From the NCBI RefSeq assembly GCF_003334335.1, contig NZ_QOWQ01000027.1: DNA of 64,000 bases; one strand, given 5' to 3'. Below are positions 10,585-11,415 of the stretch, in pieces. A program made the translations under genes and the position numbers. Below the pieces are notes generated by a model. That model had not been told where the DNA came from. It made no database searches and was given only the letters and a program-made list of their open reading frames with translations. Within the stretch, counting starts at the first letter, position 1. The number at the start of each line of letters is the position of its first letter. This stretch comes from Escherichia coli. Its GTDB lineage: Bacteria; Pseudomonadota; Gammaproteobacteria; Enterobacterales; Enterobacteriaceae.

Positions 10585-11415
10585 TTACGCGGAGCGAGAC
10601 GCTGTCGCCCCTGCGCGTGGTGGCAGAGCAAATGCCACCAGCGCCGGGATGAGATAAATAAACCAGACGGCGACTTCGCTGACGCTCGGCGCTTCCTGAT
10701 AGCCAAAAATCCCTTCCATCAGCGTGCCAAACAGCGAGTGAGTTGAGAGCACCGCACTCATATCGAAGGCGATTTCCTGAAAGTGGTTCCACAATCCGGC
10801 TTCATGAAATGCGCGAATGGCACCAGCTGCCAGCCCTGCGGCGACGAAGAGAATAAACAGGCTGGTCCATTTAAAAAATGCACCAAGATTGAGGCGAATA
10901 CCGCCCCAGTAGAGCAGGAAGCCTAGCACCACGGCAGTAGCAAGACCGAGCATTGCACCCAGCGGCGGCCAGATCCCGACATCTTGTTGAAATGCCGCCA
11001 GCAGGAAAAAGACCGACTCCAGCCCTTCCCTTGCAACGGCAAAAAAGACCATCATCACCAGCGCCCAGCCATGATGATTTCCACGCTGCAATGCGCTATC
11101 GACTGCCTGCTCCAGTTGTACTTTGACGTTGCGCGACACTTTGCGCATCCAGAAAACCATCCAGGTAAGGATCACCACGGCGATCACCGCCACGATACCT
11201 TCAAACAGTTCCTGCTCTTTTTGCGGAAATTCGCCGGTGGTTTCGTTAATGAAGATCCCCAAGCCCAGGCACAATGCAGCGGCAAGCAACACGCCAATCC
11301 ACATCACACTAATCCATCGGCCTCGCTGGGTACGCTTAAGATAGCTGGCAATCAAACTGACAATCAGCGCGGCTTCAAGTCCTTCGCGCAACATAATGAG
11401 AAACGGAACAAACAT
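10585..11415 (-). CDS. efeU: EfeU, ferrous iron permease (Ftr1 family), intact reading frame
   Basis: Track ORF to 11424; start set at ATG 11413-11415 (MFVPFLIMLREGLEAALIV); uninterrupted 276-codon frame. Confidence 0.9.
   Translation of the reverse strand: MFVPFLIMLREGLEAALIVSLIASYLKRTQRGRWISVMWIGVLLAAALCLGLGIFINETTGEFPQKEQELFEGIVAVIAVVILTWMVFWMRKVSRNVKVQLEQAVDSALQRGNHHGWALVMMVFFAVAREGLESVFFLLAAFQQDVGIWPPLGAMLGLATAVVLGFLLYWGGIRLNLGAFFKWTSLFILFVAAGLAAGAIRAFHEAGLWNHFQEIAFDMSAVLSTHSLFGTLMEGIFGYQEAPSVSEVAVWFIYLIPALVAFALPPRAGATASRSA

Follow-up and report, generated by a model that had tools for sequence, protein, structure and literature searches.

[quoted passage not shown] Work published in 2006-2007 already established that K-12 alone has a cryptic EfeUOB, the system being intact in other E. 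coli; the present analysis adds little more than a correct annotation of the locus, and iron-uptake phenotypes of the window strain should not be predicted from K-12. As we read it, the efeUOB operon of the window is very probably an ordinary wild-type one, from a phylogroup-A-like E. coli close to strain EC416. The operon is predicted to encode a seven-helix permease of the Ftr1p type with the periplasmic partners EfeO and EfeB, published work suggests that it would be expressed under acidic and iron-scarce conditions, and the serine at residue 36 of EfeU is probably neutral.

The efeU gene occupies positions 10585..11415 on the minus strand, where both the six-frame ORF list and direct translation gave an unbroken frame of 276 codons plus a stop codon, with 0 internal stops. 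The frame runs from an ATG at 11415 to a stop codon ending at 10585 and encodes the protein MFVPFLIM...ATASRSA. An in-frame GTG at 11424 lengthens the mechanically called ORF by 3 codons; the ATG is the start annotated by RefSeq in the closest genome, that of EC416. The original prediction had described an intact efeU of 276 codons, continuous from MFVPFLIM to the stop, and the ORF list and translation agreed with its coordinates, length and first residues. Re-translation in search of an internal stop or frameshift in efeU revealed neither.

The product was assigned to the Ftr1p-like inner-membrane iron permeases of the OFeT/FTR1 family. It scored 332 bits against the NCBIfam EfeU equivalog NF041756 (curated cut-off 255) and 351.3 bits against TIGR00145 (cut-off 303.8), and it matched Pfam PF03239 (FTR1) with an E-value of 1.3e-89 over residues 1-275 and model positions 1-283 of 284. 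The matches were therefore full-length and above the cut-offs, as expected of an EfeU/FTR1 (OFeT) permease. EfeU was also aligned with 108 full-length family representatives drawn from a library of 1.84 billion proteins. The protein carries both REXXE motifs of the family, each as REGLE: the first at residues 10-14 (R10-E-G-L-E14) in TM1, encoded at 11374..11388 on the minus strand, and the second at residues 129-133 (R129-E-G-L-E133) in TM4, encoded at 11017..11031 on the same strand. The REXXE columns of the family alignment as a whole are conserved in 92-107 of the 108 representatives, and the R, E and E columns of the first motif are kept in 105-106 of them. A Kyte-Doolittle scan gave six clear hydrophobic segments, and charged residues kept the fourth segment (residues ~118-140), which bears the second REGLE, under the threshold. 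This profile fits the seven-helix topology that has been published (PMC9174327). A search for solved structures related to EfeU by sequence found none, so residue 36, which is discussed below, was located by hydropathy instead.

The two partner genes lie immediately downstream on the same strand. The gene efeB (8123..9394, minus strand) is intact and encodes a 423-aa protein predicted to be a Tat-exported DyP-type haem peroxidase/deferrochelatase, with a score of 612.6 bits against TIGR01412 (cut-off 428). EfeB carries the twin-arginine (Tat) motif SRRRLLKG and retains D235, H329 and R347, the haem-site residues in the numbering of the EfeB structure papers. The gene efeO (9400..10527, minus strand) is likewise intact and encodes a 375-aa protein, predicted to be a periplasmic cupredoxin and M75 (imelysin-like) protein, that scored 480.7 bits against the NCBIfam EfeO equivalog (cut-off 270). 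Residues 27-375 align with the solved E. coli EfeO (PDB 7WGU), and the HxxE motif of the M75 domain is present as HRLE from residue 217. The differences from the solved protein include Q247K (window 9789, codon 247), a lineage-specific change, derived in comparison with EC416 and K-12. The solved homologues have Q or E at position 247, which lies at a distance from the HxxE motif. The exact EfeO allele of the window is rare, being found on 5 contigs. No internal stops were found in efeO or efeB. With gaps of 57 nt between efeU and efeO and 5 nt between efeO and efeB, the operon is compact, and efeU is thus followed by intact efeO and efeB in one operon, which is the tripartite arrangement of EfeUOB.

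To locate the K-12 defect, we compared efeU of the window with efeU of K-12 MG1655 (NC_000913.3; b4490, formerly ycdN, b1016/b1017), which is the same gene at the same position. The K-12 gene is 830 nt long and is annotated as a pseudogene, and efeU is also labelled 'frameshifted' in a K-12-serotype RefSeq genome. Global alignment showed that K-12 lacks one base at gene position 106, in codon 36, which corresponds to window position 11310; past the deletion the K-12 frame reads RWIV* (stop two codons later). Only five other differences separate the two efeU sequences, all at third codon positions and synonymous. The loss of one base at codon 36 agrees with the lesion described for K-12 in PMC3577903. 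The b4490 annotation and the one-base gap in the alignment thus bear out the earlier statement that K-12 efeU is a frameshifted pseudogene, and the alignment proposed with that statement places the frameshift at codon 36.

Population counts show how far this lesion extends. We found efeU in 5418 of 5426 complete E. coli genomes, with no match in the other 8. Seven efeU matches in this collection were on plasmid-labelled records, and one genome had two copies. The deletion was counted with a 61-nt probe of K-12 sequence spanning the missing base, for which an exact match was required. Exact matches were obtained in 368 of 5380 complete genomes, and in the remaining 5012 the probe aligned with one gap or more differences. 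The best 60 of the 368 exact matches were all K-12 laboratory derivatives (MG1655, C600, DH5alpha, DH1, J53, NCM3722 and others), and the lesion appears, from these sequences, to be restricted to the laboratory lineage. E. coli normally has an intact efeU, and the defect of K-12 has been described before; the view in the original prediction that other strains keep the gene intact agrees with these counts.

The only new detail at this locus, which the original prediction had missed, is a Gly36Ser substitution at the very codon of the K-12 lesion. Codon 36 of the window (11308..11310, minus strand) is AGT (Ser), with A at 11310, the base that K-12 has lost, and nearly all other E. coli have G at this base (GGT, Gly), as seen in alignments with K-12, EC416, O157:H7, APEC O78 and UTI89 and in population counts. 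In EC416, the closest complete genome, efeU differs from the window by one nucleotide, namely the codon 36 base. Of 5380 complete E. coli genomes, 71 contained a 62-mer with Ser36, and many of these 71 came from avian or APEC O78 isolates; the exact EfeU protein of the window was found on at least 1000 public contigs. In the family alignment, few columns vary as much as column 36 (R 51, P 18, K 17, T 5, G 5 and S 4 of 108), and by hydropathy residue 36 lies in a K/R-rich cytoplasmic loop between TM1 and TM2. Because the column is variable, the residue is placed in a loop and the exact protein is this widespread, Gly36Ser is probably harmless.

The EfeU of the APEC O78:H4 strain E12049 (RefSeq WP_000497965.1) is an identical 276-aa protein that includes Ser36, and its gene has 19 synonymous nucleotide differences from that of the window. 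The Ser36 change therefore occurs on two nucleotide backgrounds. In this comparison the differences nearest to the codon 36 base are at -79 and +141, and consequently recurrent mutation of G106A and transfer of a conversion tract of at most 220 bp are indistinguishable. It is conceivable, and in our judgement unlikely, that codon 36 mutates recurrently, with the loss of G in K-12 and a G-to-A change on both the EC416-like and the APEC O78-type backgrounds. If these were independent events rather than gene conversion over at most 220 bp, codon 36 would mark a minor hot spot of mutation or selection within an iron transporter, and Ser36 could then be adaptive in avian and extraintestinal lineages. 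A nearby quasi-repeat, TGGATTGG...TGGATTGG, was considered as the template of the G-to-A change and rejected, since G occupies that position in both copies.

The region upstream of efeU contains predicted sites for two regulators. The original prediction had placed a Fur-like box upstream of the gene, and we located a Fur-box-like site, CGTAATGATAATCGCTATC, at 11475..11493 on the minus strand, 60-78 nt upstream of the efeU ATG, that matches GATAATGATAATCATTATC at 15 of 19 positions. It is the best match in the whole 64 kb window, and when the 541-nt intergenic region was shuffled 2000 times with dinucleotides preserved, 4 shuffles (~0.2%) reached 15/19. The box proposed earlier thus reappears as a predicted 19-bp Fur box, the kind of site by which the Fur regulon is defined. 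For strain O78-9, a Fur box has been computed at efeU, and the gene is reported to be induced when iron is limiting (PMC4145685). Between the Fur box and the ATG lies a predicted CpxR-box-like tandem, GCAAA-N5-GTAAA (11453..11467, plus strand), which has 1 mismatch to GTAAA-N5-GTAAA; weaker copies with 2 mismatches each start at 11443, 11463 and 11494. In published work, efeU is among the genes regulated negatively by CpxR (PMC9600279).

The 81 nt upstream of the ATG, which include the Fur box and the 1-mismatch CpxR-like tandem, are identical in the window, K-12, O157:H7, APEC O78 and UTI89, so that the Fur box of K-12 is an exact copy of that in the window; beyond these 81 nt the sequence varies among the five strains. 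The intergenic region between putP and efeU is 541 nt long in the window (11416..11956) and 653 nt in APEC O78:H4 E12049, and the difference of ~112 nt indicates an indel upstream of the conserved 81 nt. A simple scan of the putP-efeU intergenic region found no consensus sigma-70 promoter. By eye, TTGTAT-16 nt-GATAAT overlaps the Fur box, and it was set aside as a promoter since its first hexamer has 3/6 matches.

The O157:H7 EfeUOB system (YcdNOB) lies at the same locus and in the same gene order as in the window (putP-efeU-efeO-efeB-phoH), and is reported to be functional in the work of Cao et al. 2007 (Mol Microbiol 65:857), as outlined in PMC3577903 and PMC9174327. Its efeU differs from that of the window at 3 of 831 nt and 1 of 276 aa (Gly36Ser). 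The tested O157:H7 proteins differ from those of the window by EfeU G36S and EfeO Q247K, the EfeO and EfeB alignments having been run against EC416 and K-12. From this near-identity, the EfeUOB transporter of the window strain is probably functional and would take up Fe2+ at low pH. Fur binding and iron-dependent repression in this strain are predicted.

EfeU is a homologue of Ftr1p in the yeast Ftr1p/Fet3p system (OFeT), with seven predicted helices and two REXXE motifs (PMC9174327); the yeast partner is the multicopper oxidase Fet3p, whereas the E. coli partners are the cupredoxin-M75 protein EfeO and the DyP haem peroxidase EfeB. EfeUOB of Bacillus subtilis (YwbLMN) and FepABC of Staphylococcus aureus have the same three components, are regulated by Fur and include a Tat-exported DyP peroxidase (PMC3577903, PMC3068169). 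In these Gram-positive systems, however, the EfeO-like component is a predicted lipoprotein, FepA of S. aureus has the M75 domain only, and the EfeU homologues are distant from E. coli EfeU in sequence identity.

Taken over from these systems, the working of the operon in the window strain may be as follows. According to work on O157:H7 and Nissle 1917, Fe2+-Fur, acting at the -60 to -78 box, would repress efeUOB, and CpxR would do so at higher pH. Iron scarcity would lift the repression by Fur, and repression by CpxR would be low at acidic pH, so that efeUOB would be expressed in acidic medium with scarce iron. The Tat pathway would then export EfeB, already folded with its haem, and the Sec pathway EfeO. 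EfeB and EfeO would oxidise and pass on Fe2+ present in the periplasm, or iron that EfeB has removed from haem, and the REXXE glutamates of EfeU would carry the iron across the inner membrane, as in yeast Fet3p/Ftr1p (PMC9174327). K-12 is incapable of this uptake because one G of codon 36 is deleted, whereas the window strain keeps the frame.

Two explanations compete with this reading of the open frame. The base that the window has and K-12 lacks is the unusual A and not the common G, which would fit an assembly or sequencing artefact in which a miscalled base fills a K-12-type gap. The records GCA_002190205.1, GCA_003334335.1 and SRR1815430, however, are 100% identical to the window over 5400-14527 (the shorter one over 5400-11860), that is, over 6.5-9.1 kb including the base at 11310. 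These three identical independent assemblies led us to reject a sequencing error at this A, and the intact frame is thus not a sequencing artefact. The flanking haplotype is EC416-like and not K-12, with 83 differences from K-12 in 3.8 kb, and the 71 complete genomes with Ser36 also have A at the codon 36 base, which leaves an artefact hardly conceivable. Alternatively, the frame may be real and the transporter impaired or silent, through private substitutions (EfeU G36S at the TM1-TM2 junction and EfeO Q247K) or altered regulation. In comparison with EC416 and K-12/O157:H7 both substitutions are derived, and the EfeO allele is as rare as described above. Yet serine stands at the highly variable column 36 in 4 of 108 representatives, alongside R, P, K, T and G, and the identical EfeU is encoded on at least 1000 contigs and in 71 complete genomes. 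Residue 247 of EfeO, which accepts Q or E in solved homologues, is distant from the HxxE motif, and the promoter-proximal 81 nt are those of O157:H7. Impairment or silence is accordingly very unlikely.

A third explanation accepts a functional operon and differs in its main role, which would be not the acid-induced uptake of free Fe2+ but the extraction of haem iron in the periplasm by EfeO and the deferrochelatase EfeB, followed by import through EfeU. Whether free Fe2+ or haem iron is the physiological substrate of EfeUOB is debated (PMC3577903). The O157:H7 system is reported to free haem iron in the periplasm and to transport it without import of haem (PMC3577903), and EfeB of the window retains the Tat signal and the haem-site residues named above. 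On the other side, Cao et al. 2007 and Grosse et al. 2006 are summarised (PMC9174327, PMC3577903; also PMC2808357, PMC4746246) as having found that Fe2+ uptake at low pH needs a complete EfeU. Both roles could coexist, and the sequence favours neither; we consider a primary role in haem-iron extraction possible, though somewhat doubtful.

Over window positions 1..60410 the identity to E. coli EC416 is 99.95%, with 25 mismatches and 3 gaps, and the next closest sequences are those of K-12 strains, at 99.4%. The gene order is pgaABCD, phoH, efeBOU, putP, putA, rutR, rutA-G ... hyaA-F and tRNA-Ser. There are 14 coding differences from EC416, of which 11 are nonsynonymous and 3 synonymous. We rejected this 11:3 excess as a sign of selection or mutagenesis, as it is about the ratio of unselected recent mutations, and also as a signal of the window lineage, as at least one change (putA 1193) is derived in EC416 and not in the window. 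Among these loci, PutP W26L (window 13389, codon 26) is lineage-specific and derived relative to EC416 and K-12; like EfeO Q247K, it was seen in three independent draft assemblies. In pgaB (2915..4933, plus strand), a TGG-to-TAG change at window 4914 relative to EC416 creates a premature stop at codon 667, which removes the last 6 of the 672 residues of the PNAG deacetylase PgaB.

Collinearity with EC416 ends ~40 nt beyond a tRNA-Ser(UGA) gene at 60280..60367. Of 5426 complete E. coli genomes, only 10 contain at least 80% of the 3.6 kb segment that follows (60368..64000), which resembles a rare island or a prophage remnant at serT. Downstream of the tRNA gene, the segment encodes a Cys-cluster protein of the YkgJ family (60506-60856, plus strand), a 181-aa ORF with no family match (61214-61759, minus strand), a 487-aa YadA-like trimeric autotransporter (61774-63237, minus strand) and a DUF4376 protein (63596-63916, minus strand). 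The YadA anchor of the autotransporter scored 117 bits, far below the 750-bit cut-off; the protein may resemble the prophage-borne Eib immunoglobulin-binding adhesins.

Several RNA families were also matched in the window. The Yersinia antisense sRNA Ysr251 of Rfam matched at 6721..6914 (plus strand) with 189 bits (gathering score 100), antisense to the 3' part of phoH (6716..7504, minus strand). Matches at the Rfam gathering level were further obtained for ES036 (CssrF) at 24353..24395 and naRNA4 (CssrE) at 30281..30359, both on the plus strand, and for a cspA-type thermoregulator leader at 41042..41464 on the minus strand, which by collinearity with EC416 is near cspG.
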